Shown in pieces: positions 37,513-50,509 of a DNA stretch of 61,235 nucleotides. Location of the stretch: contig JBBTUT010000010.1 of assembly GCA_038063615.1 (NCBI GenBank), forward strand, positions 12,035 through 73,269, written 5' to 3'. The DNA comes from Patescibacteria group bacterium (GTDB lineage: Bacteria; Patescibacteriota; Minisyncoccia; Phycocordibacterales; UBA1550). The stretch's first letter is position 1. Each line of letters begins with the position of its first letter. Under the pieces are notes generated by a model that was not told the origin of the DNA, ran no database searches, and worked only from the letters and a program-made list of their open reading frames with translations. The position numbers and the translations under genes were made by a program.

Positions 37513-37563
37513 TCTGTTTCGTCTTTTCAGACTCATCAGTCGAGATACGCATCTCGATACAGA
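37513..37563 (-). ncRNA. Type III hammerhead ribozyme (HHR-a)
   Basis: minus strand TCTGTA|TCGAGA-tgcgta-TCTCGA CTGATGA GTCT-GAAA-AGAC GAA ACAGA; cleavage after A (complement of 37558). Confidence 0.85.
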
Positions 37564-37686
37564 GAGCATTTTTACGCGTGCTCAGCGCGGATGGTTTTGT
37601 CTCGGTTCATCAACCGGAGGGCTCTGCTTCCCTTGGGCTCCACATTTTATCATCAAGAAAAAGTGGACAAAGACTCTAGGATTTAG
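37564..37686 (-). repeat. Module M (structured domain 5' of the hammerhead), copy a
   Basis: about 125 nt shared with 38921, 40958, 48082, 50510, 49421; helices TTTGTC/GACAAA, TCCAC/GTGGA, AGGG/CCCT, CGGTT/AACCG, GAGCA/TGCTC. Confidence 0.75.
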
Positions 37687-37740
37687 CGCGAGGAGTTACC
37701 TCATTCAAACACCTCCTTTATTACTTCAATGAATTTATAC

Positions 37741-38106
37741 TTAGCGGTATCGAGAACCCGCTGAACAGCTGCAAGGATAGCTTCCCTCAGGTCCTTCTGC
37801 ACTATACTCTGTGACCCTGCCAGTGTCATCGCATGCTCTACATTTTGGCTCTTTGATTCTTTCTACTGTTTCTTTGTGCGCTTGTGCTATTAGTCGCGCA
37901 AGGTCATTCAGGGTAATTTCGCCCTTACCGTTGCATAGATTACAAACTTTTGCTACCTTGCCGGTGCCGCGACATTCATTGCAGGAAGTACTTTCCCCAT
38001 AATATCTGCTATCTTTATAGACATCTACTTTGCCCTTCCCGTAGCACTTCCGACACTCTACAAGGAATTTCCCTTTACCTTCACAAGCTTCGCACATCTC
38101 TTTCAT
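37741..38106 (-). CDS. DnaJ-CR-type zinc-finger repeat protein
   Basis: 121 aa from MKEMCEACEGKG; five CxxCxGxG-like units. Confidence 0.75.
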   Translation of the reverse strand: MKEMCEACEGKGKFLVECRKCYGKGKVDVYKDSRYYGESTSCNECRGTGKVAKVCNLCNGKGEITLNDLARLIAQAHKETVERIKEPKCRACDDTGRVTEYSAEGPEGSYPCSCSAGSRYR

Positions 38107-38447
38107 GTCCCCTCCTTTTTTATTTGTTCCTCTGCTATTTTGCCCGTTCCCCTGCATTTACTGCAATGCCTAATCCATGACTGCTCTTTTATAACATGGT
38201 CATTATACTGAGAGCTATTAGCAAGCTCTATTCCCCAAACATGACCCGTTCCTTCGCATTTATCACATTTGCACCTCTGGCACACAATCGCCCCTTCACC
38301 GCTTCCGCCACAATCACAACACTTCTCTGTCCAACATTCACCAAAACCATCTTTATGGTAGGTCTTTCCTTTCCCGTTGCACTGCCTACAAACTTTCACT
38401 ATCTCGATCTCGCCTACACCCTTGCATTCATCACATATTCTCGCCAT
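38103..38447 (-). CDS. DnaJ-CR-type zinc-finger repeat protein (paralog)
   Basis: 114 aa; CDECKGVG, CRQCNGKG, CCDCGGSG, CDKCEGTG, CSKCRGTG; stop overlaps the next start (ATGA). Confidence 0.75.
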   Translation of the reverse strand: MARICDECKGVGEIEIVKVCRQCNGKGKTYHKDGFGECWTEKCCDCGGSGEGAIVCQRCKCDKCEGTGHVWGIELANSSQYNDHVIKEQSWIRHCSKCRGTGKIAEEQIKKEGT

Positions 38448-38502
38448 AATTTTCCCTCCTTCGCCTAAAGTCCGTCGGCTTTTATTTGTTTTTCAAAGAT
38501 CT

Positions 38503-38583
38503 TCTGATTTCGTCCTGCCTTCGCCAGCCTCCTTCCGGCTTTGTTTTTGGACTCGTCAGCGCCAGTCTCACTGGCGAATCAGA
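38503..38583 (-). ncRNA. Type III hammerhead ribozyme, extended stem II variant (HHR-b)
   Basis: minus strand TCTGATT|CGCCAG-tgaga-CTGGCG CTGACGA GTCC...GCCGG-aaggagg-CTGGC...GGAC GAA ATCAGA. Confidence 0.75.
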
Positions 38584-38869
38584 GAAGGTTTTTAGAGAAC
38601 CTTCCGAAACTCTTACCACTATGAGAGTTTTTTACGAGACTCTCTTAAACTCGGCATAGTTCCATGCGCTCCGACCGCGCGGTCCCACTGTCGGACAAAG
38701 AAAGATGACTGACTTGCTACCATGCTTGGCAAGCTTCATCCTCTCTGGGCTAAGTTTGATACCGACGACAGTTAAGTGCTTAGCTAAATTTCTGTCGTGG
38801 GCCGCTGATCGAGCGGCAAACTCAAGAGCTTATTTATTTTCCTCCTTTCAAGTCTTTGCAAAGAACTCA

Positions 38870-38920
38870 TCTGTTTCGTCTTTTAAGACACATCAGCGCA
38901 GACACTCATCTGCGGACAGA
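38870..38920 (-). ncRNA. Type III hammerhead ribozyme with A9U core substitution (HHR-c)
   Basis: minus strand TCTGTC|CGCAGA-tgagtg-TCTGCG CTGATGT GTCT-TAAA-AGAC GAA ACAGA. Confidence 0.7.
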
Positions 38921-39040
38921 GAGCATTTTTACGCATGCTCAGTGCGGATGATTTTGTCTCGGCTCATCAACCGGAGGGCTCTGCTTCCCTTGGGCTCCAC
39001 ATTTTATCATCAAGAAAAAGTGGACAAAGACTCTTTAGGA
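38921..39040 (-). repeat. Module M, copy c
   Basis: near-identical to 37564..37686. Confidence 0.75.
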
Positions 39041-39071
39041 TAATGAGCACTGTCGCGCTATTTTGCTCTTT

Positions 39072-39275
39072 TTATTTTTGCCAAAAAGAGCACCTGGTAC
39101 AGGTAGCGGCTATCCGTTCAGCAGTCCAAAGATGTGGGTTCTTGATTGCGCGTACCCAGCGTGTACATCTTTTGCGAGCATCACGCTTGAATAACTCAGC
39201 CTTGCCACAACCATCAAACGGTTGAAGGGATTTTACGGTCCCCTTTCCACAAGTTACAGCTCCCCAATCCATCAT
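39072..39275 (-). CDS. Small Cys-containing protein
   Basis: 67 aa; GAGGAGG SD; first gene after the 39403 promoter. Confidence 0.55.
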   Translation of the reverse strand: MMDWGAVTCGKGTVKSLQPFDGCGKAELFKRDARKRCTRWVRAIKNPHLWTAERIAATCTRCSFWQK

Positions 39276-39402
39276 ATTTCCTCCTCGTTTTAAGCCCGTC
39301 GGCTGTTATTTGACTCTTTCAAAGAACTGCTTGTTTCCTCCTTGAAGAAAGGTACCATACCTGCAATATAGTTGCTGAGGTTTTTAGATGATTTGTGGTA
39401 AA

Positions 39403-39408
39403 ATTATA
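39403..39408 (-). promoter_or_regulatory. -10 box (TATAAT) of a candidate promoter for the 39275-to-37212 unit
   Basis: minus strand ctgTATAAT; weak -35; lies in the divergent spacer. Confidence 0.4.
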
Positions 39409-39480
39409 CAGATAGGCAAAAATGGCTTAAAACAAATGGTTTTTAAAGGGTTGGGGTAAAAAAACTGTTGACGAAAAAAT

Positions 39481-39510
39481 TTGACAAGTAATGCGGAAAT
39501 CGCTTACAAT
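39481..39510 (+). promoter_or_regulatory. Sigma-70-type promoter for the TrmB-like gene
   Basis: TTGACA-18 nt-TACAAT; preceded by aaaaactgttgacgaaaaaatt, a motif also present at 41881..41902. Confidence 0.6.
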
Positions 39511-39531
39511 TTAAAGAAGTTACACAATAAT

Positions 39532-40266
39532 ATGGCTCTCTCAAAATTTTTAGATTCAATAGGACTCGATGAAAAAGACCAGAAAGTATACTTGGCTCTT
39601 TTAAAATTAGTCGATGCGCCAATTTCAAGGATAGCCAAAGTGTCAGGAATTCAACGCACAACGGCATATTATCGTATAGAGAAATTAATAAAACTTGGGC
39701 TTGCTTCCAGCTATCGTCACCACAATGTAAAGCGATTTGTTGCTGAAAATCCAAACAAGATAAGAGGCGTATTGGAAAGCAAGATGCTAATGCTGGATAA
39801 GTATTTACCGGAGTTGCAAACCGTTTCTCTTGAAAGAAAATTGGTTAATTTGAGGCTTTTTGAAGGGATAGGGGGGAGGAAGCAGATGATAGAGGAAGAA
39901 TTAAATTGCAAAGAAAAAATTGTCCGCTCTATTGGATATGCCCGTGATTTGAGAAAGGTCCAAGGTGGCAGTATGGGATTTTCCAAAAGACGAATAGAGA
40001 AAAAAGTTTTTTCAAAATGTTTGCGTCCGCAAGATGATGAGTTTGACAAGGAATGGTTAGCTAGCCAACAAAAAGAATTACGGGAGGTACGGCTGCTGCC
40101 ACCGGGGACGAAACCGTCGGGGATGATCTTTGTCTTTGACAACAAAATAAGCATTATCGCTCCCGAAGAAGAGGAAGGGATAGGATTTCTTATTGAGAGC
40201 AAGAGCTTGAGCGCGACAATGAAATCAATTTTTGATGTATTGTGGGAAATGAGCAGGAGAACATAG
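39532..40266 (+). CDS. TrmB-family transcriptional regulator
   Basis: Trimmed to MALSKFLDSIGLDEKDQKVYLALLKL...; N-terminal wHTH like 53086..53865. Confidence 0.75.
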   Translation: MALSKFLDSIGLDEKDQKVYLALLKLVDAPISRIAKVSGIQRTTAYYRIEKLIKLGLASSYRHHNVKRFVAENPNKIRGVLESKMLMLDKYLPELQTVSLERKLVNLRLFEGIGGRKQMIEEELNCKEKIVRSIGYARDLRKVQGGSMGFSKRRIEKKVFSKCLRPQDDEFDKEWLASQQKELREVRLLPPGTKPSGMIFVFDNKISIIAPEEEEGIGFLIESKSLSATMKSIFDVLWEMSRRT

Positions 40267-40307
40267 CCAACGCATAGCAGGTATCTCCACTAGCACTATA
40301 TTTGTTT

Positions 40308-40850
40308 TTACCATCCCTCTCTTCCTAATATCAAATCTGCATGCTGTTTCATTGGTTCAATATGTTTTTTATGCGACGCTTCCACTTGCGTTGAATGTTT
40401 GATGACCTCCGCCTCAGATCTGCCCCTTTCATTATCGCGTTTGATTCTGCGCGCAAGACGCTCATCAGTTGGTGTGTCTATAAATATTTTCAAATTCCCA
40501 ATCTGTCTTAATGTATCGTGCAGAGCGAATACTCCCTCCACGACAACCAGCCCCGATTTAGCAGGAATAATTTTTATTTGCCCAACCCTTTCAGATGTGA
40601 CCATATCGTATTCCGGGACAAACACTTCTTTCCCGCCGGCAAGATTCAGTGCCATTTTGGCGCATTCATCCAAGTCCACGGCGCAGGGATCATCAAAATC
40701 ATATTCTCCGTTTTCCATCGGTATCATCTTTGACTTTCCTATATAAAAATTATCCGTACTTATGATTGCGGCATCCCCGAATTTTTTGGCCAAAGTTGAT
40801 TTACCCGATCCGCTTCCACCACAAATTAAAATTATTTGTCCTTTTTCCAT
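40308..40850 (-). CDS. Uridine kinase / PRK-family P-loop kinase
   Basis: 180 aa; ICGGSGSGKSTLAKKF, VVVEG, FIDTPTDERLARRIKRDNERGRS. Confidence 0.75.
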   Translation of the reverse strand: MEKGQIILICGGSGSGKSTLAKKFGDAAIISTDNFYIGKSKMIPMENGEYDFDDPCAVDLDECAKMALNLAGGKEVFVPEYDMVTSERVGQIKIIPAKSGLVVVEGVFALHDTLRQIGNLKIFIDTPTDERLARRIKRDNERGRSEAEVIKHSTQVEASHKKHIEPMKQHADLILGREGW

Positions 40851-40906
40851 AGTTTCTATTTTTTAATTATCACTTTTTTGAAAATAATTTTCAATGTCTT
40901 TAAAAA

Positions 40907-40957
40907 TCTGTTTCGTCTTTTCAGACTCATCAGCGCAGACACTCATCTGCGGACAGA
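40907..40957 (-). ncRNA. Type III hammerhead ribozyme (HHR-d)
   Basis: minus strand TCTGTC|CGCAGA-tgagtg-TCTGCG CTGATGA GTCT-GAAA-AGAC GAA ACAGA. Confidence 0.85.
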
Positions 40958-41080
40958 GAGCATTTTTACGCGTGCTCAGTGCGGATGATTTTGTCTCGGT
41001 TCATCAACCGGAGGGCTCTGCTTCCCTTTGGCTCCACATTTTATCATCAAGAAAAAGTGGACAAAGACTCTAGGATTTAG
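40958..41080 (-). repeat. Module M, copy d
   Basis: near-identical to copies a and c. Confidence 0.75.
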
Positions 41081-41153
41081 TGTTTGGAATTACTTCATTT
41101 CACGCATCTCCTTAAGGAGCACTCTTTTAAGGCAAAGTGCACGAAGCCGTTTA

Positions 41154-41645
41154 TTATGGCCAATGATCATCAGCTCCACTGCTGCAAGTTTCTATTTCGT
41201 CATCGCGGGTTGTTGTTATTTCTTTTTTCGTTAACACCTCCCTTTTAAGAAGACTTTTAAGATGGATATAGTTTTCGCTGTCTTTTTCCCAAATGTCATT
41301 TTTGCACTTTATGCATCGATAGTAGACATGAAACTTTTCAACTCCCCGAGTGGCGTAGCCAATTGTATAAGTACCATAACTCATTCTACGGCGTTCATGC
41401 TCAGTTCTTTTCTTGCATTTAGGACATACTATCGTTGTTTCCACCGCCGTTGTCTCTATCGTCAACAAAAACCCGTGGTATTTTGCGAGAGACGGCTTTA
41501 TGCGGTTATTGCATTTTTTGCATTCATAGAAAATCTTGTACCCGTAGAAGAAGTTCGCATCTATATGTATCTCTCCATGCTCTGTTCTTTCTTTGCACTT
41601 AGAACATTCGATCGTTATTTTGGTTTCACTTTTTATTTCTTGCAT
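41154..41645 (-). CDS. Tandem zinc-ribbon protein (internal duplication)
   Basis: 163 aa; CSKCKERTEH...YECKKCNNRI repeated as CPKCKKRTEH...YRCIKCKNDI. Confidence 0.7.
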   Translation of the reverse strand: MQEIKSETKITIECSKCKERTEHGEIHIDANFFYGYKIFYECKKCNNRIKPSLAKYHGFLLTIETTAVETTIVCPKCKKRTEHERRRMSYGTYTIGYATRGVEKFHVYYRCIKCKNDIWEKDSENYIHLKSLLKREVLTKKEITTTRDDEIETCSSGADDHWP

Positions 41646-41695
41646 TTTCTCCTCCCTTTTCGTTTGAAGTTAACTTGCTTTTCGGTTTTCAAAGA

Positions 41696-41760
41696 TCTCC
41701 TGATTTCGTCCTGCCTTCGCCGGCCTCCTTCCGGTTTTGATTTTTGGACTCGTCAGTTCC
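41696..41760 (-). ncRNA. 5'-truncated hammerhead (HHR-e): core, stem II and stem III 3' strand only
   Basis: minus strand ttggaaCTGACGA GTCC...CCGG-aaggagg-CCGG...GGAC GAA ATCAGGAGA; no stem I hairpin or cleavage-site strand upstream. Confidence 0.55.
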
Positions 41761-41767
41761 AAAAGCG

Positions 41768-41773
41768 ATTATA
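41768..41773 (-). promoter_or_regulatory. -10 box (TATAAT) of a candidate promoter for the 41645-to-40308 unit
   Basis: minus strand ttgtcTATAATcgctttt; predicted start falls just before the truncated hammerhead core. Confidence 0.4.
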
Positions 41774-41965
41774 GACAATTTCTTATAAACTTACCGAGAA
41801 TTACTACTAACTGATTACAAATTAATTTACTCTGTCATAAAAACGGCTTCGTTGAGCCATTTTTATGAGTTCCCCATCAAAAAACTGTTGACGAAAAAAT
41901 TGGACAGCGACTGGAAATATCTTAATTTTCTTGTCTTTTTTTAACTAACCTTTTATAATATAGCT

Positions 41966-43222
41966 ATGATAAAAGAATCATTCCATAATTTAGAAAAAGC
42001 CCAATCGGAGGCGGAAAAAATAAAAGGACTGGTCGGAGAAAAAGGTGAGAGTGAGGACTACGCCACGGCAGAAAAACTTTTAGAAGAAGCTGGCGAAATA
42101 GAGCTGGTGGATTTCGACGCTGAAGAAAGCGGTGGTGTTGAAGCGCAAGTAGAAAAAACGACGCCATCCATCATTCCTGAAAAACAAAAAGCAGAAACAG
42201 TGAAACGAGAGCCAAAACCGTATGCCTACAAAGAAATAGATCGACTCGGAGAGCAACTTTCTAATTTCAAGAAAAATGCGAGGGGCGCGCGTAGCAAAGA
42301 GACTCGAAATGCCAATGAAGAAAAAATTAAATTTTTCAGAGAGGAATTAGAAAAAGCAAAAATAGCCAGAAAGGACATCAATGAGAAGATAGAAAACAGA
42401 AATTCAAAATTTGAAAGATTGCTTAAAGATAAATTTGAAGATCTTAAAGATGGAACATGGGAATCAAGTATACCGGAAATTGATTCTGTTCAGGTCTACA
42501 AAGACAAGCCCAGAGAGGAAGGCAAGGTAGAATCTCTCGGCATAAATGTTTTCTGGGGAAAAGACGGGGAAACACACACTGCGCATTTTAAACTTTTGAA
42601 AGATGGTACATTGGTGGGCAAAATGCCGATAGAAAGAGGATTGAATATCGACAAAGATGAGCTTTTTGACGATGTTTTGCACACTATCGAAACAGTAGAT
42701 ATGTCGTTTTTTGAGAATATTAGCAAGAAGATTTTACGCTCCAAACCATCATCTGATAGGCATCCTCATATCGACGGAGTACATACCCCAACTCCAGAGA
42801 AGCCGGACGAAAAAAGAAAACCAAAAGATCCTAGACGCCTAGAATTTATGGGAAACCATGGAAAGGTTCTTTTTGGCATCACAGAAGAGGGATACAACTT
42901 TAATGGTTATTACGGGTTTGTTTTTCCAAATTTTTTAGTATTGGAAAACGAGAAAATCGGTAATGCCGCCATTTTTATTGATTTTGAAAACCCTATCGAC
43001 ATTGACCCGAAAAGATTTAAATTGCCACCAAAAAGAAGAATGACCAAAGAGGAAAGGATGAAAACTCTGAAAGATAACATAGAAAAATACATAAACCTAG
43101 ATGGAGATCAGCTTGAAAAGATGGGGGCAGAAAGAAAGCCTCATCCGCATATGGATAATGAAAAATGGGAAGAAAAAATGAGGCTACGAATAGACACGAG
43201 ATTGACAAAAATAGAAAATTAG
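41966..43222 (+). CDS. Hypothetical Lys/Glu-rich protein
   Basis: 418-aa ORF; no recognisable motif. Confidence 0.6.
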   Translation: MIKESFHNLEKAQSEAEKIKGLVGEKGESEDYATAEKLLEEAGEIELVDFDAEESGGVEAQVEKTTPSIIPEKQKAETVKREPKPYAYKEIDRLGEQLSNFKKNARGARSKETRNANEEKIKFFREELEKAKIARKDINEKIENRNSKFERLLKDKFEDLKDGTWESSIPEIDSVQVYKDKPREEGKVESLGINVFWGKDGETHTAHFKLLKDGTLVGKMPIERGLNIDKDELFDDVLHTIETVDMSFFENISKKILRSKPSSDRHPHIDGVHTPTPEKPDEKRKPKDPRRLEFMGNHGKVLFGITEEGYNFNGYYGFVFPNFLVLENEKIGNAAIFIDFENPIDIDPKRFKLPPKRRMTKEERMKTLKDNIEKYINLDGDQLEKMGAERKPHPHMDNEKWEEKMRLRIDTRLTKIEN

Positions 43223-43276
43223 TATATCGTACTGGTAGTTGTTTTTTTGTAAATCATCAATCAAAAGGAGGGTTTT

Positions 43277-43504
43277 ATGGAAAAGACGGAATTGATTGCC
43301 TGTCACCGAACAGCAGGAAACGACACAATAACCAGAGAGGTATTTTGTAAGTTGGTGGATGTTTTATTGAAATATGCTCCGGACCATGTACGCAATTTTT
43401 TCAAGGATTTTGCCAATGATCCCGAGACAACCGATGGCGAAATCCAAGAAATAACAGATGTCATGCTCAATAAGCTTAATGAGAACACTATCGCCCAATG
43501 TTAA
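43277..43504 (+). CDS. Hypothetical small protein
   Basis: 75 aa; AAGGAGGG SD; followed by a terminator. Confidence 0.55.
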   Translation: MEKTELIACHRTAGNDTITREVFCKLVDVLLKYAPDHVRNFFKDFANDPETTDGEIQEITDVMLNKLNENTIAQC

Positions 43505-43525
43505 CATTGGGCGATTTTTATTTCG
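43490..43525 (+). terminator. Intrinsic terminator
   Basis: cgcccaatgttaacattgggcg palindrome then atttttattt. Confidence 0.75.
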
Positions 43526-43732
43526 GCTAGCATACTCCAAGAGTCATCCTGCTGGACGAGTACTCTCGTACACAGCGTCCGAGCGACGACGAAATATAGG
43601 TACAATACCGCGCGAGAAAAGCGAGCTCCGACAATACCCCGGGGCTATGCCCCGAGGAACCTTTATTGGCTGGGAAAATTGGATAGTCAAGCTCAAAAAA
43701 GGAAGAATGTGCGCAAGAAAGCAGGCTTCTTT

Positions 43733-43767
43733 AAACAAACAACCCAGCCTCTTGCGAAGCCGGGTTG
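43733..43767 (-). terminator. Intrinsic terminator (3' part of module C, copy b)
   Basis: minus strand CAACCCGGC-ttcgcaagag-GCTGGGTTG then TTTGTTT. Confidence 0.6.
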
Positions 43768-43782
43768 TACAATATTTCAAAA

Positions 43783-43824
43783 TTTTTCAAAAAGAACATA
43801 GGATTGACCTCCATCCCGAGGAGC
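43783..43824 (-). repeat. Module C conserved core, copy b
   Basis: identical core to 37121..37161. Confidence 0.7.
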
Positions 43825-43854
43825 CTTCTGTAGTAAAGACACAAACTGGGGTTT

Positions 43855-44172: not shown

Positions 44173-44226
44173 CTCTCTACCCCCATTCGTTTAAAGCCCG
44201 TCGGCTATATTTTTTTGAAAGAACAA

Positions 44227-44294
44227 ATCTCTGCAAGATTTCAAATTATCTCTAACTTAAAATCTTGATAAAGATGGCAAGTTTCTGACTTGCC
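44227..44294 (-). repeat. Double-hairpin module H2+H1, copy 1
   Basis: H1 44227..44275 (atctctgcaagattt...aaatcttgataaagat), H2 44276..44294 (ggcaagt-ttctg-acttgcc). Confidence 0.75.
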
Positions 44295-44358
44295 AAAAAG
44301 TTGACCGCTACTTTAAGGAGTGTTCTTTAAGCAAAACACACAAAGCTGTAAGCTTGTT

Positions 44359-44745
44359 TCACTCTGTATTTGATTTTATCCTGACCGAGTATCCCACTAT
44401 AAGTTCCTTAAATGCCGTTACCATTTTTAAGGAATTATTAGCGACATATTCCCAATCATTTCTCTCTGCTATTAAAGCTTTCACAGCATTGGATAGTCCC
44501 CTGTCCAATTGCTGCTGGCGAGTTTTCGCCAGCAATTCACATAGTGGTGGTGCCATATCTTCGTAAAAAGCTAGCGCAGGATGTTTTAGGACTGGTATTA
44601 CAGTTACCAAGAAAAAATCTAGATCCGAGCGATAATTGTGCTTTGGTATCGATATTTTCTTCAATATTTCCTCTGTTCTTGGCAGTACAGACCCTCCAAA
44701 CTCGTACAAAAAGGCACCACAAACTGCTCCTGCTCCTATTCCCAT
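44359..44745 (-). CDS. Hypothetical protein
   Basis: Trimmed to MGIGAGAVCGAF with AAGGAGG SD. Confidence 0.5.
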   Translation of the reverse strand: MGIGAGAVCGAFLYEFGGSVLPRTEEILKKISIPKHNYRSDLDFFLVTVIPVLKHPALAFYEDMAPPLCELLAKTRQQQLDRGLSNAVKALIAERNDWEYVANNSLKMVTAFKELIVGYSVRIKSNTE

Positions 44746-44808
44746 CTTTCTGCCTCCTTTTTTCAAATTCCTCCGCTATAAAAATAGCGAGGTGAACTTA
44801 CTAGCAGA

Positions 44809-44870
44809 AGGATAGCATATCGCCACATATTTGTCAAGCATTTGACAAAATTAAGAATATGATATATATT
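44809..44870. promoter_or_regulatory. Back-to-back divergent promoters sharing a TTGTCAAgcaTTTGACAA palindrome
   Basis: minus strand TTGACA(44837..44832)-17-TATCCT; plus strand TTGACA(44842..44847)-17-TATATT. Confidence 0.6.
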
Positions 44871-44910
44871 GCACTCAGATATGTTAAATTAAATCAATAA
44901 GGAGGGCAGG

Positions 44911-45108
44911 ATGCACGGAAAAAATAAATTTATAGAGCCATTAAGAGAAACGGTTAAGCGAATCATTGCGGAGCGAAACCATGGGCTAGGATGCATATGC
45001 GATGATTGCCTGATATTTGAGCTTTTAGGTGCTCAAGACGCCAAAGAGCAAACTCCAGGATCGTTTTTGTTGGAACGCAAAGCGGACAACAATACACCGC
45101 TTAATTAA
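44911..45108 (+). CDS. Hypothetical small protein
   Basis: 65 aa; AAGGAGGG SD. Confidence 0.5.
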   Translation: MHGKNKFIEPLRETVKRIIAERNHGLGCICDDCLIFELLGAQDAKEQTPGSFLLERKADNNTPLN

Positions 45109-45974
45109 AGAAAGTGCGGCAAAGAATGTTTCCAGAATCGAGAGGCCTGCTTAAGGCCTCTTTTTTTTATTTCATCTTCCTTTTGTTTTAAAATATCCTG
45201 TATTATGTTGAGTGCTTTTTCAAGTTTTTGAGGAGCGAGAGAATGTTGTGGCTTATTATTTCGAATAAGTTCCTCATTGAGCCTTTTGACAAATAAAAGT
45301 TGGTCTTGAAAATTCTGAACAATTTCCTCGAGGAACCCAAATTGTAATGGATGTGTCGCCTTATCAATGCTTTTATCGGCGATATTCTTGCAAAGCTCCT
45401 CAAGTTGATCTTTCTTTATTTGAACAATTGCACGAGGAATATTTTCTATTGCACCCTTGGTTTTGCTTATTTCAGAATAATAATATTTCAGATCCGTAAG
45501 TTTTCCATCAGATAGTCTCGTTCTTAATGATCTGTATTTATCTTCAAGAACCCCTTGATCTTCTGAAATAGTCAAGTCGATGGCTATTCTCTCAAACGAA
45601 TCATCTTCTTGTGAAATTTCCAATACGAAATCACTACCTCTTTTTATATCATCAAATTCGCTGGTCAAAATGACATTTGTTTCATAGCCAAGCCAACACG
45701 ACCGCTCCCCTTCCTCATAAAAAATCCCCGCCGCAATCAACGCACGCCCATGTTGCTCCCTAAATTTCGGATCTTTTTTAATTCTCTCAATCTCCCTTTT
45801 ATCTTTTTCAATTTCCTCTTTTGAATACAAACCTTCAAAATCCTCCATTTTTGGAGCTTCGACTTTCAGTACGCCATCGACATATTTTTCCATCGCTTTG
45901 TCCTCCGCCATTGTTAACGGAGGTTCTTTGGCTAAAAATTTATTCTCAAAAGCAACATCAGGTCTCATATTCAT
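45105..45974 (-). CDS. Hypothetical protein
   Basis: 289-aa acidic, helical ORF; own promoter (TTGGCA-15-tgaTATACT at 46069..46043). Confidence 0.6.
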   Translation of the reverse strand: MNMRPDVAFENKFLAKEPPLTMAEDKAMEKYVDGVLKVEAPKMEDFEGLYSKEEIEKDKREIERIKKDPKFREQHGRALIAAGIFYEEGERSCWLGYETNVILTSEFDDIKRGSDFVLEISQEDDSFERIAIDLTISEDQGVLEDKYRSLRTRLSDGKLTDLKYYYSEISKTKGAIENIPRAIVQIKKDQLEELCKNIADKSIDKATHPLQFGFLEEIVQNFQDQLLFVKRLNEELIRNNKPQHSLAPQKLEKALNIIQDILKQKEDEIKKRGLKQASRFWKHSLPHFL

Positions 45975-46089
45975 ATAATTAATTTAGTTTAAATGTTCGA
46001 CACTATGCTATCTAAAATCTCATAATCCACACTAGTACTTTCAGTATATCATTTTTGCTGTTGTGCCAAAACTTGCTATGACCCGAGCC

Positions 46090-46122
46090 AAATAAAAAAA
46101 ACGGCACTTTTGAAAAGTGCCG
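46090..46122 (-). terminator. Strong intrinsic terminator ending the long 52.6-to-46.1 kb unit
   Basis: minus strand GGCACTTTT-caa-AAGTGCC then GTTTTTTTTATTT. Confidence 0.8.
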
Positions 46123-46137
46123 CCTCGCAATTGGCTT

Positions 46138-46773
46138 CTATTCTATTTCCACCAATGCTTTTTCGGCAGTATAGCGCTGGATGCCGAGTTCTTTGCGCAT
46201 CTTGCGTATTATGCCGACCGGCTTATCTACGCAATCAGCGATCACGGTATCTGGCATGCGCCCTAGGAATGATTGGATCTTATCTTTCCAACCATCCACA
46301 CCCTCTTCGTGCGGATACGCAATGCCATTTTGTTTGAAAGCGTTTTTGATGCTCCCAAAATGGACGATTGCGGAATGATAGACCGCTGGATGCTTCTTGA
46401 GAAGCTCCTTCGGGCTAAACCCCTCTTTGCCCTTCATCTGGTCCAAGGTCTGTATCGCGCAGTAGAATTTCATCTCTGCGTGACCTATACCGTTCCGGCT
46501 TCTCGCCATTAGGTACGACACGAACCTTGACCCGCATTTCGGGCATCGCGTGGTGTAGTCCCGCGGGTCCTGATTGAACCCGCGAATGATCTCCGCCGGT
46601 GTCAGCGCGCGACCGCATTTCGGGCAATCACCCTTTGGCTTGTATTCTTCGCCACGGAGCTCTTGAATGAGCCCGAGTTTGAGAGCGATTTTATGCTCCG
46701 CCAAAAGCTGTGTTTCCAACACCGTTCGGTGCGTACTCCTGAAGTGGTGCCCTACCCTCAATGTCAATCCCAT
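46138..46773 (-). CDS. Zinc-ribbon protein
   Basis: 211 aa from ATG 46773; CPKCG...CPKCG. Confidence 0.65.
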   Translation of the reverse strand: MGLTLRVGHHFRSTHRTVLETQLLAEHKIALKLGLIQELRGEEYKPKGDCPKCGRALTPAEIIRGFNQDPRDYTTRCPKCGSRFVSYLMARSRNGIGHAEMKFYCAIQTLDQMKGKEGFSPKELLKKHPAVYHSAIVHFGSIKNAFKQNGIAYPHEEGVDGWKDKIQSFLGRMPDTVIADCVDKPVGIIRKMRKELGIQRYTAEKALVEIE

Positions 46774-46925
46774 CACCTCACCTCCTTTTTAATTTGTTTT
46801 TCCCGTTTTCTGCTATACCCCACCAAGCCTTTCTTGCTCGAATGGGCGCCACCACCATGATGACGAAGCTTAAAACAAACTGCCTCCGGAAGTCTCCTCC
46901 CGACTTTCAATCCAACCTTTTTCAT
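46773..46925 (-). CDS. Small basic protein, translationally coupled
   Basis: 50 aa; GGAGGTGGGAGA SD-ATG; stop overlaps the next ATG as TGATG; below the ORF-track size cut-off. Confidence 0.4.
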   Translation of the reverse strand: MKKVGLKVGRRLPEAVCFKLRHHGGGAHSSKKGLVGYSRKREKQIKKEVR

Positions 46926-46967
46926 TCTCCCACCTCCGCTATTTTTTTGGGACTCTTTTTCAAATCC

Positions 46968-47026
46968 CTTTTAGAAATTTCAAAACAAATTTAAAATTTC
47001 TAAAAGAAAGGCAAGTCTTGCTTGCC
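46968..47026 (-). repeat. Double-hairpin module H2+H1, copy 7 (divergent stem sequence)
   Basis: H1 cttttagaaattt-caaaacaaattta-aaatttctaaaag (13 bp perfect); H2 ggcaag-tcttg-cttgcc. Confidence 0.65.
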
Positions 47027-47035
47027 ACATAGCAG

Positions 47036-47209
47036 TTATTTTACATCGTACTCTGCTATTTTATGCTGATAGTCCGGAGATGGACCCCCGGTGCGATCCA
47101 GAGCATCTTGCACGGATTGTTCCGCCTTCTCACGGGAAGAGTACACTTCTACTATCATCCACCCACACCCCATGCAGTTCATCTGCCTTATAAAAACTTT
47201 TTCTACCAT
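47036..47209 (-). CDS. Hypothetical small protein
   Basis: 57 aa from MVEKVFIRQ; GGAGGTG SD. Confidence 0.5.
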   Translation of the reverse strand: MVEKVFIRQMNCMGCGWMIVEVYSSREKAEQSVQDALDRTGGPSPDYQHKIAEYDVK

Positions 47210-47228
47210 ATGCACCTCCACAAACTCA

Positions 47229-47267
47229 AACCCACCTGCCGATTTCTCGGTTCAGGACTTACGGGTC
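47229..47267 (-). promoter_or_regulatory. 5' UTR stem-loop U1, copy b
   Basis: aacccacctgccgatttctcggttcaggacttacgggtc. Confidence 0.7.
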
Positions 47268-47286
47268 GTATTTTTGAAAGAACAAA

Positions 47287-47350
47287 ATCTCTACAGAAGC
47301 ACAACTTGTGTTATGTTTCTGATAAAGACGAGGAGCGGTATTTGCTCCTC
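47287..47350 (-). repeat. Double-hairpin module H2+H1, copy 6 (covarying stem)
   Basis: H1 atctctacagaagc...atgtttctgataaagac; H2 gaggagc-ggtattt-gctcctc. Confidence 0.65.
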
Positions 47351-47357
47351 AAGAAGT

Positions 47358-47633
47358 TCACAGAAAAAATCTTTTGTGAACCCAGCTTGCCGCCAGAACC
47401 ATTGAGACAAGCCAAAGACATGGCCCCATTATGCCCAGTATCATGAACAAAATCATGAAAACAGCCAGCCCAATAAAAGGCAATGGGAAGCCAATCCTGA
47501 AAAAGAACTCATGCCATTCAGGATCATAAAATACCATGAACGGCATACCAAAGAGGTATTTTACTGCCCTCCATCCCAAAAACACGACGGCTACAAATAC
47601 TAAAATACTTAGTAGATTCGTCATCCTCTTCAT
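47358..47633 (-). CDS. Small membrane protein (3 TM)
   Basis: 91 aa from MKRMTNLLSILVF; GGAGGTGG SD. Confidence 0.6.
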   Translation of the reverse strand: MKRMTNLLSILVFVAVVFLGWRAVKYLFGMPFMVFYDPEWHEFFFRIGFPLPFIGLAVFMILFMILGIMGPCLWLVSMVLAASWVHKRFFL

Positions 47634-48030
47634 TCTTCCACCTCCATGCGTTTCCAGTCCGCCGACCATAATTTTGGGATTCTCTTTCAAATCCCTTTCA
47701 AAAAATTCAAGTTGTTAAAATCTTTGAAAGGGAGAGGATGCGATATTTTGCATCCTCTCTGTGCAGTGTCATCTTATATCGCGTAAGATGACTTGGTTGA
47801 GACCCTCGCCTGTGACGATAGATTTTCTGATAGCTAGTCAGAATAATCACACAAGCAACCGGTACGGTCTCACCCATAGGTTTTTTTTGTGAGGTCTAAC
47901 GACCTCATTGAGTTTCCTATAACTCTCTCCGTGACGTACTTTGGGGCTGCACACCCTCCCTGTACCACAACATCTTCCAAAAAAATCATTTCAAAAAGAT
48001 GTTGTGGCGCAGGGAATTTTTAAAAGAACA

Positions 48031-48081
48031 TCTGTTTCGTCTTTTCAGACTCATCAGTCGAGATACACATCTCGAAACAGA
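48031..48081 (-). ncRNA. Type III hammerhead ribozyme (HHR-f)
   Basis: minus strand TCTGTT|TCGAGA-tgtgta-TCTCGA CTGATGA GTCT-GAAA-AGAC GAA ACAGA. Confidence 0.85.
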
Positions 48082-48300
48082 GAGCATTTTTACGCATGCT
48101 CAGTGCGGATGATATTCATTATCGGCGTTGAACTTACCGTGACAAACGCTCAAGTTTGTCAGGCAATAGGTTATTCTCATCAGCTTACCCTATTGCCACC
48201 AATTTTTACCGGACTGGCGCCGTGTCTATGATTTTGTCTCGGTTCATCAACCGGAAGGTTCTGCTCCCTTTAGGCTCTCCATTTTTTAAAACGGGGACAA
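48082..48300 (-). repeat. Module M, copy f, carrying a ~117-nt insertion (48114..48230)
   Basis: flanks match the other copies with compensatory AAGG/CCTT for AGGG/CCCT; the insert holds GGCAATAGG/CCTATTGCC and TGACAAAC/GTTTGTCA hairpins. Confidence 0.7.
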
Positions 48301-48316
48301 ATCAAACTAAGCGTCG

Positions 48317-48979
48317 TTAGTTGCCTAGCTTTTTCTCCCCAAGGAGTTTGGCAAGTATGTCTGCCCAGTCCTTCCCGTGCTGCGAGTAGGCGGTTCCAGT
48401 CCCATTGCAACGGTAGCACCCGTAGGTACCATCCTTGCCGGAGCCGGAACACTTCGCGCAGGTGCCTTGGGTCCCCTCAATACCAACCATGCCAACATAG
48501 TTAGTAAAGAGTGCCTTCGCGTTATGGAGCACGAAAATGGTGTTGTTCATCGCATCGAGCATCGCGCTCGCTGGATGATCGTGATGACCCATGTCGGTCA
48601 CCACCGCAACATACTTCGCGCCGCGAAGTGCCGCAGTGATGGCGAGTGCCCATCCAACAGACATTTCCTTCCCCACATGCTTGAGCCCCTCACCACCTTG
48701 AGTGGCCCGACCTGCTGGCATCAAGAGATCGCAGAGTACGACATCCCAATACGGAAGCCACGACTCTGCCTCAGCCTTCTTGTGTGCCGGCCATGACTCT
48801 ATCCCCTGACTCATGTACTCGGATTTAAGGGTCTTATACTTCTCATTATCCAGCTGTGGTTCAAGAAGCTCGAGCGCTTCGTCATGACTCCCCACAACCG
48901 TAAGGTCATGTAAAGCCCCAAGAACCTGCTGAGCTGAATTCTGGTGGTTTGCGCTGTCGTCGATTACTAATATTTTCAT
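48317..48979 (-). CDS. Receiver-like domain fused to CxxCxGxG zinc fingers
   Basis: 220 aa; MKILVIDDS... REC-like N-terminus; C-terminal CAKCSGSGKDGTYGCYRCNGTG. Confidence 0.7.
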   Translation of the reverse strand: MKILVIDDSANHQNSAQQVLGALHDLTVVGSHDEALELLEPQLDNEKYKTLKSEYMSQGIESWPAHKKAEAESWLPYWDVVLCDLLMPAGRATQGGEGLKHVGKEMSVGWALAITAALRGAKYVAVVTDMGHHDHPASAMLDAMNNTIFVLHNAKALFTNYVGMVGIEGTQGTCAKCSGSGKDGTYGCYRCNGTGTAYSQHGKDWADILAKLLGEKKLGN

Positions 48980-49057
48980 ATTAATCTCCTACCCCTGAAC
49001 CCGAGGTGCAGCTTGCGAAGAATTCGCATTTTTATTTATTTTATTTAAAAGAACAAA

Positions 49058-49122
49058 ATCTCTACAAGATTTCAAACACTCTGTTTAAAATCTTGATAAA
49101 GATGGCAAGTTTCTAACTTGCC
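49058..49122 (-). repeat. Double-hairpin module H2+H1, copy 2
   Basis: H1 49058..49103, H2 49104..49122. Confidence 0.75.
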
Positions 49123-49195
49123 AAAGGTTGACCTCCACCGTAGGAGTGTTCTTTAAGCAAAACACACAAAGCTCTTTTATCCACCTATTTTATTT

Positions 49196-49384
49196 TTATA
49201 TTTCCTCTCCTCCTAAAAACTTCCGCCCGTTACCGTCTGTCGTAATATCACCGATTGGATCTAGACTGAAGCCATTAAGCCTATCGAGAGAAGCTTGGCT
49301 CGCCACTGCTCCTTTTACTGCGAGAATGGCAAAAAATTTCTCGATATCCTCCACTTCTTCAACCTGCTCTTTTTTCTCGTTCAC
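49196..49384 (-). CDS. Hypothetical small acidic protein
   Basis: 62 aa from GTG 49384 with AAAGGAGGTG SD; the track ORF extends in frame into module M, taken as fortuitous. Confidence 0.45.
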   Translation of the reverse strand: MNEKKEQVEEVEDIEKFFAILAVKGAVASQASLDRLNGFSLDPIGDITTDGNGRKFLGGEEI

Positions 49385-49420
49385 TATCTTTCTCACCTCC
49401 TTTTTGTTTTTAACGGTCCC

Positions 49421-49512
49421 GACATTTTGTCTCGGTGTGTCAACCGGAGGGCTCTGCTTCCCTTTGGCTCCACATTTTATCATCAAGAAAAATGTGGATA
49501 AAAACTCTAGAC
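49421..49512 (-). repeat. Module M, copy h (subtype 2, no hammerhead attached)
   Basis: matches 50528..50626; CGGT-tgacac-ACCG replaces CGGTT-gatg-AACCG. Confidence 0.7.
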
Positions 49513-49527
49513 TATATTGATTACTTT

Positions 49528-50037
49528 CTACACAGGAGACATGTGTTTGAGAATATTCCTAGTTTTCTCTGAATAAACTTCTTTCTCAATGAATGTATTC
49601 ATCTTGTCCCTAGAGAAACGATCAATTTTAATCTTTTTTCTCAAATCAAAACTTGTCTCATTGTCTTCTAAGAAAACAAACTCTACTGCAAACCCATTGT
49701 TCTCCATCTCTGTGGCAAGATCCAGAGCGAACTCTTCCGCTTTGTTTTTTAATTCCCGCCAGTCTTCCTTGGTTGCTTCAGAATTCTCTTTTTCAGAAGC
49801 AAATATCCACCCGTCAGACACATTTACTTTAGCAAAACCAGAATGCTCTTTGCGTGAATTTTCCCTATATTTATAAGGGCCCCACGAAAATAATCCTTCT
49901 GCGCTAATTGTAACTATGTAAGCTGGGTAATATTTCCAATAACGATTTGCATCCCAATGCCAATCTCCGTGCGTACCCAAATAACCCTGAACTGTTTTTA
50001 CCACCGAAACCAGAACTTTCTTTACTCCATCCACCAT
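49528..50037 (-). CDS. Hypothetical protein
   Basis: 169 aa; GAGGAGGGGGAG SD; no motif. Confidence 0.6.
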   Translation of the reverse strand: MVDGVKKVLVSVVKTVQGYLGTHGDWHWDANRYWKYYPAYIVTISAEGLFSWGPYKYRENSRKEHSGFAKVNVSDGWIFASEKENSEATKEDWRELKNKAEEFALDLATEMENNGFAVEFVFLEDNETSFDLRKKIKIDRFSRDKMNTFIEKEVYSEKTRNILKHMSPV

Positions 50038-50088
50038 TTCTCCCCCTCCTCGTTTCGAGCCCGTCGGCTATTTTTTTGAAAGAACAAA

Positions 50089-50157
50089 TCTCTACAAGAT
50101 TTCAAACACTCTGTTTAAAATCTTGATAAAGATGAGGAGCGATGCTGCCGCTCCTCA
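50089..50157 (-). repeat. Double-hairpin module H2+H1, copy 3
   Basis: H1 50089..50134, H2 gaggagcg-atgctgc-cgctcctc. Confidence 0.75.
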
Positions 50158-50458
50158 AAGACAGATGGGAACAAGGTCCCTTTTTAATAATTTGTTTTGT
50201 CGGCGTCCCAACAAACACAAATTATCGTCAAGCATTCTGTCAAAATGCTTTCGCTGAGTTGATGCCTTCTATGGCATCTAAAGGTCTCATCAGCTTAACC
50301 TTACAACGATGGATTTCGTCAGCACCCATCCCTAATACTGGTGTCTCCTACTCCTTGCAGTAGGGATCACCTGCCAAATTTTTCCGCGACTGGACATTTG
50401 TCGCAACCTTAATCGCCTTTTAATTCAAGGGGTAAGGGACGGATTGTTGAAAGAACTT
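50158..50458 (-). ncRNA. About 300-nt hairpin-rich non-coding spacer
   Basis: no credible minus-strand ORF (the 73-aa plus-strand track ORF 50142..50363 is judged spurious); 19-bp GATAATTTGTGTTTGTTGG/CCGACAAAACAAATTATT helix, AAGCATT/AATGCTT and GATGCC/GGCATC hairpins, loop GGTtaagctgatgagACC. Confidence 0.45.
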
Positions 50459-50509
50459 TCTGTTTCGTCTTTTCAGACTCATCAGCGCAGATACGCATCT
50501 GCGGACAGA
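50459..50509 (-). ncRNA. Type III hammerhead ribozyme (HHR-g)
   Basis: minus strand TCTGTC|CGCAGA-tgcgta-TCTGCG CTGATGA GTCT-GAAA-AGAC GAA ACAGA. Confidence 0.85.

Follow-up and report, generated by a model that had tools for sequence, protein, structure and literature searches.

Earlier work described clusters of hammerhead ribozymes that flank small, non-conserved open reading frames, and demonstrated their cleavage (Perreault 2011; de la Peña 2017). Such gene-flanking clusters have been known since 2011: in prophage regions, multiple hammerheads flank single genes or short gene blocks, and cleavage was demonstrated in vitro for Clostridium scindens, Azorhizobium caulinodans and Agrobacterium tumefaciens, and in vivo for A. 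tumefaciens (Perreault et al. 2011, PMC3088659). In the haloviruses HF1/HF2, a mapped transcript 5' end adjoins the cleavage site of the hammerhead HHphage (Perreault et al. 2011, PMC3088659). What hammerheads do biologically in prokaryotes is regarded in the field as unsettled (PMC6155905). The original prediction for the DNA analysed here, that no described bacterial locus organised in this way was known, has to give way to the 2011 precedent.

The window, by which we mean the whole stretch of 61,235 nucleotides that was analysed, is part of the chromosome of an uncultured groundwater Patescibacteria bacterium (Hainich), rather than of a phage. It contains six hammerheads within 13 kb; the minus strand carries all of them, as it does the called flanking genes. 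Five had been predicted, and all are present: HH1 (37513-37563), HH2 (38870-38920), HH3 (40907-40957), HH4 (48031-48081) and HH5 (50459-50509), with the triplets GUA, GUC, GUC, GUU and GUC, respectively, as originally given. Their start-to-start spacing is 1357, 2037, 7124 and 2428 nt. The 27-mer CTGATGAGTCTGAAAAGACGAAACAGA has five matches in the window at up to three mismatches, compared with 0.00 expected from 100 shuffles. The Rfam model RF00008 (Hammerhead_3) matches all five over their full length (E 5e-8 to 1.7e-5); the gathering score of 48.5 bits is reached by HH5 only (49.9 bits, match 50457-50511), with HH1-HH4 at 43.6, 41.0, 46.8 and 44.7 bits. R1, a covariance model that we built from the wider hammerhead family, gives HH1-HH5 66-76 bits (73.6, 66.2, 74.1, 76.4 and 75.4). 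R1 found 20 hammerheads in 18 related loci (12 loci have at least one), and not one of them reaches the RF00008 gathering cut-off.

The full-length RF00008 and R1 alignments bear out the predicted type III topology, in which loops close stems I and II and both ends lie in stem III. Every copy has a stem I of 6 bp, a stem II of 4 bp (G10.1-C11.1) and a stem III of 5-6 bp. All six copies have U16.1 and A15.1, and the residues at H17 are, from HH1 to HH6, A, C, C, U, C and U; the predicted cut in HH1 lies between 37558 and 37557. The core C3 U4 G5 A6 N7 G8 A9 ... G12 A13 A14 is complete in HH1, HH3, HH4, HH5 and HH6, and a GAAA loop II caps the consensus copies. The exception among the five copies to which a complete core and a GNRA loop had been ascribed is HH2, which reads CUGAUGU, with A9 changed to U at 38890, and has the loop II sequence UAAA at 38885. 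Position 9 is an A in all 128 tabulated family members (four of them the window's own consensus copies), and HH2 is probably an impaired, decaying copy. Minimum-free-energy folds recovered stems I and II, but HH4 alone of the five copies folded with stem III; nearest-neighbour models treat the hammerhead core poorly.

Two further elements had been missed. HH6 (38503-38583, minus strand) lies 337 nt downstream of HH2, and its stem II is interrupted by 33 extra nt: UCUGAU-U/CGCCAG-UGAGA-CUGGCG-CUGACGA-GUCC-[33 nt]-GGAC-GAA-AUCAGA, where the slash marks the predicted cut after U38577. It is absent from the Rfam matches and scores 36.4 bits with R1 (E 1.5e-7) under default filters; with the filters off, only a partial alignment of 17.4 bits is returned. 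The same long-stem-II variant occurs in the loci L004, L005 and L033. The other element, at 41699-41756 on the minus strand (repeat D12), is 91% identical to HH6 and retains only the 3' half (CUGACGAGUCC...GGACGAAAUCAGG), with neither stem I nor a cleavage site; by its sequence it is a dead remnant. It is located upstream of the gene at 41154-41645.

The compact 51-nt design of the window copies, (U/A)CUGU, H17, a 6-bp stem I with the loop UGYGUR, CUGAUGA, a 4-bp stem II with GAAA, and GAA-ACAG(A/U), recurs in over 100 genomes, most of them from Patescibacteria, and in over 40 contigs of uncultivated phages. The family accounts for 100 of the 119 GTDB loci matched by a core-only pattern. IMG/VR contigs carry it at 40-75 bits, with up to 3-4 copies per contig, and encode Sak, exonuclease VIII and primase. 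The term 'minimal' hammerhead does not suit these elements, as both loops are conserved family-wide (loop I: U13 in 128/128, G14 in 123/128 and U17 in 118/128; loop II: GAAA in 107/128), a pattern to be expected if loops I and II made the tertiary contact of natural, fast-cleaving hammerheads. Across 127 distinct sequences, 98.2% of cells pair, a percentage inflated by a family search that demanded paired stems, and 13 of the 15 pairs have changed on both sides. Covariation in this set, which had itself been gathered through a pairing filter, is 0.787; shuffles give 0.231, with 0 of 500 attaining the observed score, and slid controls do not exceed 0.136. Position-specific A-rich and pyrimidine-rich stretches mark the family flanks, and the median gap from the upstream ORF stop is approximately 70-80 nt, as judged with a rough ORF caller. 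In L007, a related Patescibacteria MAG contig that is labelled Saccharibacteria, the order is promoter, gene, hairpin and hammerhead, gene, hairpin and hammerhead, gene, hammerhead remnant, gene.

Within the window, the repeated unit is 87-195 nt long, far longer than the ribozyme. Copies 1-4 are 83-93% identical, whereas copy 5 has a repeat identity of 64% and a different upstream segment. To judge from this similarity, the window copies are recent duplicates and the two stem I variants are two haplotypes of a recent duplication. The variants themselves are as predicted (CGCAGA/UCUGCG in three copies, UCGAGA/UCUCGA in two), but as evidence of selection they are weak on their own, because they are haplotypes of one recent duplication; the strong covariation stems from other genomes.

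A hairpin, GAGCAYGCGUAAAAAUGCUC, abuts stem III of HH1 on the minus strand (37564-37583). The same hairpin recurs at HH2 (38921-38940), HH3 (40958-40977) and HH4 (48082-48101), and analogous ones at HH5 (50515-50530) and HH6 (38584-38605). Hairpins of at least 5 bp end at stem III in 118 of 152 family hammerheads (78%), compared with 295 of 760 random sites (39%); for hairpins of at least 7 bp the figures are 45% and 10%.

Upstream of this hairpin lies an 88-nt conserved structured motif, which we term module A; it consists of P1, GCC, P2 with the loop AAGCAGAG, and a P3 pseudoknot. A minus-strand copy precedes five of the six hammerheads by 30-150 nt. Copy 1 (37595-37682, repeat D1) precedes HH1, copy 2 (38952-39039, D1, 93%) precedes HH2, copy 3 (40989-41076, D1, 99%) precedes HH3, and copy 6 (50540-50627, D1, 95%) precedes HH5. 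Copy 4 (48232-48319) is a UCCCC/GGAGA variant, and a structured insert of 115 nt (48117-48231) lies between it and HH4. Copy 5 (49425-49512) has no hammerhead and runs directly into the ribosome-binding site and gene at 49196-49483. The order of the composite on the coding strand is module A, A-rich-loop hairpin, hammerhead, shared 5'-UTR start (GUUCUUUCAAAA) and gene. In other loci, module A is followed by a terminator, a ribosome-binding site or a hammerhead. The region 40960-41100 of the window gave no covariance-model match, at E up to 10, to any of the Rfam self-cleaving or RAGATH families considered for module A (twister, twister-sister, pistol, hatchet, HDV-like, RAGATH-6, RAGATH-18 and others). 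No gathering-level Rfam match covers module A in 18 loci.

The original prediction placed each ribozyme between two minus-strand genes, just before the next 5' UTR, and had it cut a polycistronic RNA. The strand holds, and so does the placement ahead of the next gene at HH3, where a uridine-kinase-like gene (40308-40850) starts 57 nt downstream, and at HH6, where the gene at 38103-38447 sits 56 nt downstream. HH2, however, follows a divergently oriented TrmB-family gene (contig gene calls), with no called same-strand gene upstream, and HH5 is followed first by approximately 300 nt in which no ORF is called, next by a terminator-like hairpin (50133-50157). With five of six copies also behind module A, cutting of polycistronic RNA is only a partial picture, and the RNA that is cut may be leaders alone.

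The clusters of C. scindens, A. caulinodans and A. tumefaciens resemble the window in packing several same-strand hammerheads into a few kb, each of them between small genes of poor conservation, and in including some core variants, and the role proposed for them is likewise to divide long transcripts into operon- or gene-length mRNAs. The window differs in its host, an uncultured Patescibacteria; in an island without recognisable prophage genes or integrase; in having only type III copies of one 51-nt design; and in that most of these are joined to module A and an abutting hairpin. The island, at 36-54 kb, holds no phage structural gene; a tyrosine recombinase (60057-60992) and tRNA-Gly are found beyond ClpP and RNase Y. 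With the type III hammerheads of viroids, satellite RNAs and plant retrozymes in RF00008, the window copies share the core, the open stem III and the closed stems I and II. Unlike the RF00008 consensus, which has longer loops, they have a 4-bp stem II with GAAA, and aligning them to it takes a deletion of 4 nt and an insertion of 5 nt; unlike members in circular RNA replicons, they are DNA-encoded between protein genes. HHphage also lies a few nt upstream of a gene start, but this archaeal-virus hammerhead occurs only once and has an atypical insertion in its core. Lou et al. reportedly described in 2012 the RiboJ element, the sTRSV hammerhead plus a hairpin between promoter and ribosome-binding site. 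As would be the case here, the type III hammerhead of RiboJ in the 5' leader strips variable upstream RNA and leaves a 5'-OH, ribozyme-capped mRNA. RiboJ is engineered and has its extra hairpin downstream of the ribozyme; the window elements are natural, with the hairpin upstream, and insulation by them is putative.

The best explanation, to which we assign a probability of roughly 65%, is that these are type III self-cleaving hammerheads of the 51-nt subfamily in composite intergenic modules, which would cut transcripts co-transcriptionally into gene-sized units. In another reading, the hammerhead would chiefly make the 3' end of an upstream module A RNA (a small RNA or leader), freed by self-cleavage in place of the intrinsic terminator found in other genomes, and transcription could run on into the next gene. 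Module A precedes a hairpin and hammerhead in five of six window copies and in L004, L005, L008, L189, L200, L208 (twice), L215, L218, L220, L235 and L244, and precedes a hairpin and U-run terminator in L197, L230, L243, L247, L263 and L266. Moreover, loci picked solely for module A exceed loci from related Patescibacteria picked for NusA 23-fold in hammerhead density. Most hammerhead family members nevertheless lack module A, as do those of L007, and module A directly precedes a ribosome-binding site and gene at 49425-49512, in L194 and in L259; we regard this role as possible but unlikely. It is rather less probable still that the ribozymes are passengers of mobile or recombining phage-derived cassettes, and that, although they may cleave, they persist by module spread rather than host benefit. 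The island at 36-54 kb has a GC content of 0.38-0.47, compared with approximately 0.50 in the flanking 1-32 kb, and encodes small ORFs without assigned families; a KilA-N protein is encoded at 53873-54694. The intergenic spacers of the window are a mosaic of repeated modules, decayed copies occur (HH2, 41699-41756 and the remnant in L007), the family is also found in phage contigs, and near relatives with DNA reaching far enough past NusA have no hammerhead there. Against passengers stand strong purifying selection on core and loops in more than 100 genomes, compensatory stem changes, and an island in which there is no integrase or transposase.

Hammerheads of type III are characteristic of circular RNA replicons (PMC6155905), and paired copies might excise the RNA between them for ligation into a circle, as in retrozymes or viroid-like replicons. 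The 287-nt stretch between HH2 and HH6 has no called ORF. RtcB-type ligases use 5'-OH and 2',3'-cyclic phosphate ends as substrates. Tandem short non-coding units of the retrozyme or viroid-like kind are not what the window contains, however: the spacings between hammerheads are 1.3-7.1 kb and hold ordinary protein genes, and only HH2-HH6 bound a short unit, of which HH2 is mutated. Spliced or circular products were sought in such clusters and none were found (Perreault et al. 2011, PMC3088659), and we consider RNA circles very improbable. That these are not ribozymes at all, and match the hammerhead consensus only by accident as parts of some repeated element that binds protein or resembles a terminator, would fit the four of five copies that fall under the Rfam gathering threshold, but the 13 conserved core positions (A9U in HH2 apart), H17 and three helices are in place, and the covariation over 127 sequences and the expectation of 0 chance matches make it disfavoured to the point of being scarcely credible. 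Counting against gene-by-gene cleavage are HH5, which has no gene directly after it, and the mutated HH2.

What is new here is the context, namely hammerheads downstream of a second conserved RNA-like motif without an Rfam match. Their likely role is co-transcriptional cleavage that parts a hairpin-ended upstream RNA from a 5'-OH downstream mRNA. In the nascent RNA, each consensus copy would fold and cut after H17. By hammerhead chemistry, the upstream piece would then end in a 2',3'-cyclic phosphate, and a ribozyme-led downstream RNA would begin with a 5'-OH. The upstream piece, comprising the preceding gene's mRNA, a module A leader, or both, would end in the abutting hairpin and UCUGUH with its cyclic phosphate; this end should protect it from 3' exonucleases, and with no more than 5 bp in stem III the piece should come away easily. 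The downstream mRNA would begin with the 5'-OH followed by the stem I and stem II hairpins, and therefore be without 5' phosphates, the feature recognised by 5'-end-dependent RNases. Overall, long transcripts would be split gene by gene and each 5' UTR uncoupled from the RNA upstream of it, much as with RiboJ.

Rfam's Hammerhead_3 model (RF00008) aligns full length to all five predicted loci, HH1-HH5 (37513-37563, 38870-38920, 40907-40957, 48031-48081 and 50459-50509; all on the minus strand), with E-values of 5e-8 to 1.7e-5. The scores span 41.0-49.9 bits (49.9, 46.8, 44.7, 43.6 and 41.0), and the best-scoring copy alone passes the gathering score of 48.5 bits; the other four fall below it. 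A 27-nt string comprising the core and stem II gives five matches at up to three mismatches, compared with none in 100 dinucleotide shuffles. The minus-strand sequences of HH1, HH3, HH4 and HH5 are exactly those of the original prediction. HH2 departs from its predicted sequence by two substitutions: its core reads CUGAUGU, i.e. A9 is changed to U (position 38890), and its loop II is UAAA in place of GAAA (38885). Position 9 is A in 128 of 128 tabulated family members (four of them from the window), and the first base of loop II is G in 107 of the 128. Given that A9 is universal and the loop II G common in this table, we expect from its sequence that HH2 is impaired. MFE folding recovers stems I and II of the five copies but stem III in a single copy; we attribute the missing stem III to the limits of the energy model and do not count it against the fold.

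A sixth hammerhead, HH6, was recovered at 38503-38583 (minus strand) with R1, a covariance model trained on members of the wider hammerhead family (36.4 bits, E = 1.5e-7; with filters off, a partial alignment of 17.4 bits only). HH6 reads UCUGAU-U/CGCCAG-UGAGA-CUGGCG-CUGACGA-GUCC-[33 nt]-GGAC-GAA-AUCAGA (slash, cleavage site) and lies 56 nt 5' of the start of gene 38103-38447. The insert in its stem II (38516-38548) contains a hairpin with the Shine-Dalgarno-like loop AAGGAGG and also CUGGCG, the same sequence as the 3' strand of stem I; in the MFE fold, the 5' strand of stem I pairs with this decoy. Since the insert duplicates the stem I 3' strand and has the AAGGAGG loop, a competing inactive fold is possible, and the modelled decoy pairing may point to a switch. 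A hammerhead remnant at 41699-41756 (minus strand), before gene 41154-41645, is 91% identical to the 3' half of HH6 and is without stem I and without a cleavage site; its counterpart of the stem II insert (41711-41743) likewise carries an AAGGAGG-loop hairpin. Another remnant (AGACGAAACAGA and GUGUUCUUUU) stands immediately after a stop codon at ~7470-7495 of L007, a related locus from a MAG labelled Saccharibacteria, whose NusA is 63% identical to that of the window. Like the window remnant, it suggests recombination or decay within ribozymes. The L007 operon runs promoter, gene, hairpin and hammerhead, gene, hairpin and hammerhead, gene, hammerhead remnant, gene.

The repeated unit in the window far exceeds the ribozyme in length. 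It consists of module A, an 88-nt conserved motif present in six copies, then a 20-nt hairpin (GAGCAYGCGUAAAAAUGCUC) directly adjoining stem III, the hammerhead and a common 5'-UTR start, GUUCUUUCAAAA. Both forms of stem I, which the original prediction had read as a sign of selection on structure, are present; because the unit copies are 83-99% identical to one another, these forms are haplotypes of a recent duplication, and two haplotypes make a weak argument for selection within the window alone. Of 152 hammerheads, 118 have a perfect hairpin (5 bp or more) whose end exactly meets stem III, compared with 295 of 760 random positions; at 7 bp or more, the counts are 68 of 152 and 77 of 760. 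The loop of this abutting hairpin is A-rich toward its 3' side, and the flank downstream of the hammerhead is pyrimidine-rich at +4 to +9 and A-rich at +10 to +15.

A core-only pattern, CTGATGAGNNNGAAANNNCGAAAC, matched at least 118 loci in GTDB. Among the matches listed, with the first-scan loci included, 100 of 119 loci contain a type III hammerhead that is complete and follows the same design; 83 of these 100 carry Patescibacteria lineage labels, and 128 of 145 distinct copies listed are exactly 51 nt long. In 127 sequences from the matches listed, the paired fraction of cells is 98.2%, and both partners have changed at 13 of the 15 pairs; paired stems were a condition of the collection, so the paired fraction, but not the number of pair types, is inflated. 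Their covariation is 0.787, compared with 0.231 when shuffled (0 of 500 reach the observed value) and at most 0.136 with the partners slid. In IMG/VR the same pattern matched 48 contig stretches, most scoring 40-75 bits with R1, with up to three or four hammerheads per contig; the neighbouring genes include those for a Sak-like annealing protein, exonuclease VIII and primase/helicase. When the family consensus was compared with cultured phages by BLAST, there was one partial match of 25 nt, in Xanthomonas phage RiverRider (MG983743.2, 17815-17839); this sole match covers the core and stem II and lies in an unannotated stretch. None of the hammerheads found with R1 in 18 related loci (L004, L183, L208, L215, L218 and others) reaches the RF00008 gathering score, and such sub-threshold scores may explain why the family has gone unannotated. 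The same Rfam scan also picked up, in L004 and L215, the RNA motifs DUF3800-IX and DUF805b, and six of the loci have tRNA genes. The ORFs flanking the hammerheads are diverse, and clustering yielded no dominant protein family.

Module A is found on the minus strand at 37595-37682, 38952-39039, 40989-41076, 48232-48319, 49425-49512 and 50540-50627. Its helix P1 is UCACC/GGUGA, with variants UCACA/UGUGA, UCCAC/GUGGA and UCACU/AGUGA and a frequent form UCCCC/GGAGA that contains a C·A mismatch. P1 is followed by a variable loop, GCC and a 4-bp helix P2 that closes the invariant-looking loop AAGCAGAG; the two variable pairs of P2 form in 93 and 87, respectively, of 120 instances taken without a filter, compared with 56 and 67 in shuffles. 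In the window and in several other genomes, a hairpin loop pairs with the sequence 3' of the conserved GAGACAAAA to form a pseudoknot (e.g. GAUGA:UCAUC, GACA:UGUC, GAUAG:CUAUC and UGACUAG:CUAGUCA). TAGAGT or TAAAAAG, immediately 5' of P1, may be a -10-like sequence. Module A itself was rejected as a sigma-70 promoter (TTGTCC ... TAAAAT), the box spacing being 5-15 nt in other genomes and both arms covarying as a hairpin; an assignment to the twister, twister-sister, pistol, hatchet or RAGATH families was rejected as there was no Rfam match, and a likeness of GGAAGCAG to SRP RNA helix 8 was discounted, since the Ns on its flanks form a hairpin with each other. No Rfam family matches module A at E up to 10, there is no gathering-level Rfam match over module A in 18 loci, and a literature search for the sequence retrieved unrelated primers only. 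The 115-nt insert between module A and HH4 (48117-48231, minus strand) forms multiple hairpins closed by CGGCG/CGCCG. It has the 13-mer UAAGCUGAUGAGA in common with a non-coding stretch 3' of HH5 (50285-50297), two exact copies alone not being significant.

A GTDB scan with the 17-base pattern GAGCCNNNNGGAAGCAGAGCC matched at least 118 loci. About one third of the matches listed are labelled as Patescibacteria, one is a DPANN archaeon (the single Woesearchaeota-labelled contig, L193) and the rest are a broad mix; with a pattern of 17 bases, some of the non-Patescibacteria matches are probably due to chance. Outside the window, module A occurs in L004, L008, L018, L056, L093 and L182-L290 and is widespread in Patescibacteria MAGs. 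Loci picked for module A alone contain 26 hammerheads in 422 kb, compared with 2 in 740 kb of Patescibacteria relatives' loci picked for NusA, a 23-fold higher density (p ~6e-10, an approximate value because matches in the same locus are not independent). Twister-sister, pistol and hatchet were originally found beside hammerheads, and module A co-localises with this hammerhead family in the same way. We tentatively suggest that module A could be an undescribed class of structured RNA: a ribozyme, a sensor gating the hammerhead or terminator, or an sRNA with a hammerhead-made 3' end.

The window is bacterial chromosome, on a contig of 130,651 bp recovered from the 0.1 µm fraction of groundwater at Hainich well H41. 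It encodes EF-G, ComEC, RecJ, PilB/PilC, NusA, trigger factor, ClpP and RNase Y, and its NusA shares 85-91% identity with the NusA of MAGs of Candidatus Yonathbacteria, Nomurabacteria and Paceibacterota, which places the organism in the Patescibacteria (CPR). A phage origin was rejected on account of these chromosomal genes across the window and because a megablast search of 50,697 phage records with 36000-51000 turned up nothing. The hammerheads sit in a lower-GC island of ~18 kb, bounded by a Fic gene (34846-35883) on one side and a KilA-N gene (53873-54694) on the other, with many small ORFs of no Pfam or PHROG family, two CXXCXGXG zinc-finger proteins, a uridine-kinase-like protein and two TrmB-type regulators. 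Gene orientation was taken from public gene calls, as a longest-ORF caller placed spurious ORFs over 91 of 161 hammerheads. By these calls, HH1, HH3, HH4 and HH5 lie between two minus-strand genes as predicted, and HH2 does not: the TrmB gene before it is transcribed divergently, so that transcription of HH2 requires a separate start. HH5 is followed by ~300 nt free of ORFs and then a terminator-like hairpin.

Segmentation and insulation of mRNA is the most likely role of the hammerheads, to which we assign a probability of about 0.65. Family membership, strand, positions and conserved flanks are direct observations; from hammerhead chemistry and published clusters, each consensus hammerhead would cut after H17 during transcription. 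The upstream RNA would then retain a terminal hairpin and a cyclic phosphate, and the downstream mRNA would begin with a 5'-OH followed by two hairpins. Alternatively, the hammerhead could serve to make the 3' end of a module A RNA. Five of the six module A copies in the window lie directly upstream of a hammerhead; across genomes, what comes after module A is a hairpin and hammerhead, an intrinsic terminator, or a ribosome-binding site with a start codon. We regard this alternative as unlikely. More doubtful still is that the hammerheads are passengers in mobile cassettes. The island looks strain-specific, because close relatives whose DNA extends far enough past NusA (short-contig relatives left out) have no hammerhead there; a PHROGs search of the island gave no structural or integrase matches. 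The formation of circular RNA is very improbable, and that the loci are not ribozymes at all is hardly credible.

The window contains several other repeats. A second intergenic module (44206-44297, 49035-49125, 50065-50157, 50936-51026 and 51981-52074; minus strand) comprises a terminator-like hairpin, UCUUUAUC, the inverted repeat CAAGAUUU...AAAUCUUG, TAGAGAU and finally GUUCUUUCAAAA, the 5'-UTR start also found 3' of the hammerheads; its layout resembles that of a terminator with an operator and promoter 3' of it. A 68-nt 5'-UTR element with the hairpin CCUGAACCGAACAAUCGGCAGG (37448-37515, 47224-47291, 50895-50962 and 51938-52005; minus strand) lies immediately 5' of four ribosome-binding sites, each belonging to a small ORF (61-102 aa). 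ORFs 37212-37430 and 47036-47221 are absent from public gene calls, in a check that covered two of the four, the other two lying beyond the stretch checked. A 55-nt near-perfect palindrome (ACCCACUGUCAUAUAAGAGACGC...) occurs at 13043-13097 and 19776-19830 (78% identical), the latter copy giving a spurious microRNA match in Rfam, and 57-nt palindromic repeats occur 838 nt apart at 21892-21948 and 22730-22786 (89% identical). Short intergenic tandem arrays (1112-1142, 7760-7818 and 24893-24923; 25458-25497 and 59979-60046; 22769-22830 and 25943-25997) have ~7-nt units with a reported 14-nt register (TTCCATATTCCA..., GTTGTTA..., ACTTTTG...), and one lies between tRNA-Gly and a tyrosine recombinase gene. 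Reading the repeated spacers as integron attC sites was rejected, there being no GTTRRRY core and no IntI gene.

Perreault et al. 2011 (PMC3088659) described prophage regions in which several hammerheads flank individual genes or small sets of genes; they proposed that long transcripts are processed there, and reported in vitro cleavage for three bacteria and in vivo cleavage for one. According to De la Peña 2017 (PMC6155905), such clusters surround small non-conserved ORFs and show a persistent link to phage, and the role of prokaryotic hammerheads is an open question. In view of the two papers, the novelty suggested in the original prediction, which knew of no described bacterial locus with such an organisation, does not hold: the hammerheads of the window are real, and are further members of an already known class of gene-flanking clusters (Perreault et al. 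2011). Within the literature covered, searches for hammerheads in Patescibacteria or the candidate phyla radiation found nothing relevant; the composite of hammerhead and module A may be new.

To our knowledge, almost no RNA biology has been characterised in Patescibacteria. In these bacteria the compact type III hammerhead is a very frequent design, and it keeps appearing in one fixed arrangement, joined to an abutting hairpin and, in many cases, to a further conserved motif. The curated Rfam threshold misses nearly all copies of this family, leaving them unmarked by standard annotation. Within 13 kb, the window offers six copies: four consensus hammerheads, one natural core mutant and one variant with a long stem II. 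Together with the ribozyme-free copy of module A, these six hammerheads form a natural comparison set for the effects of cleavage on neighbouring mRNAs.
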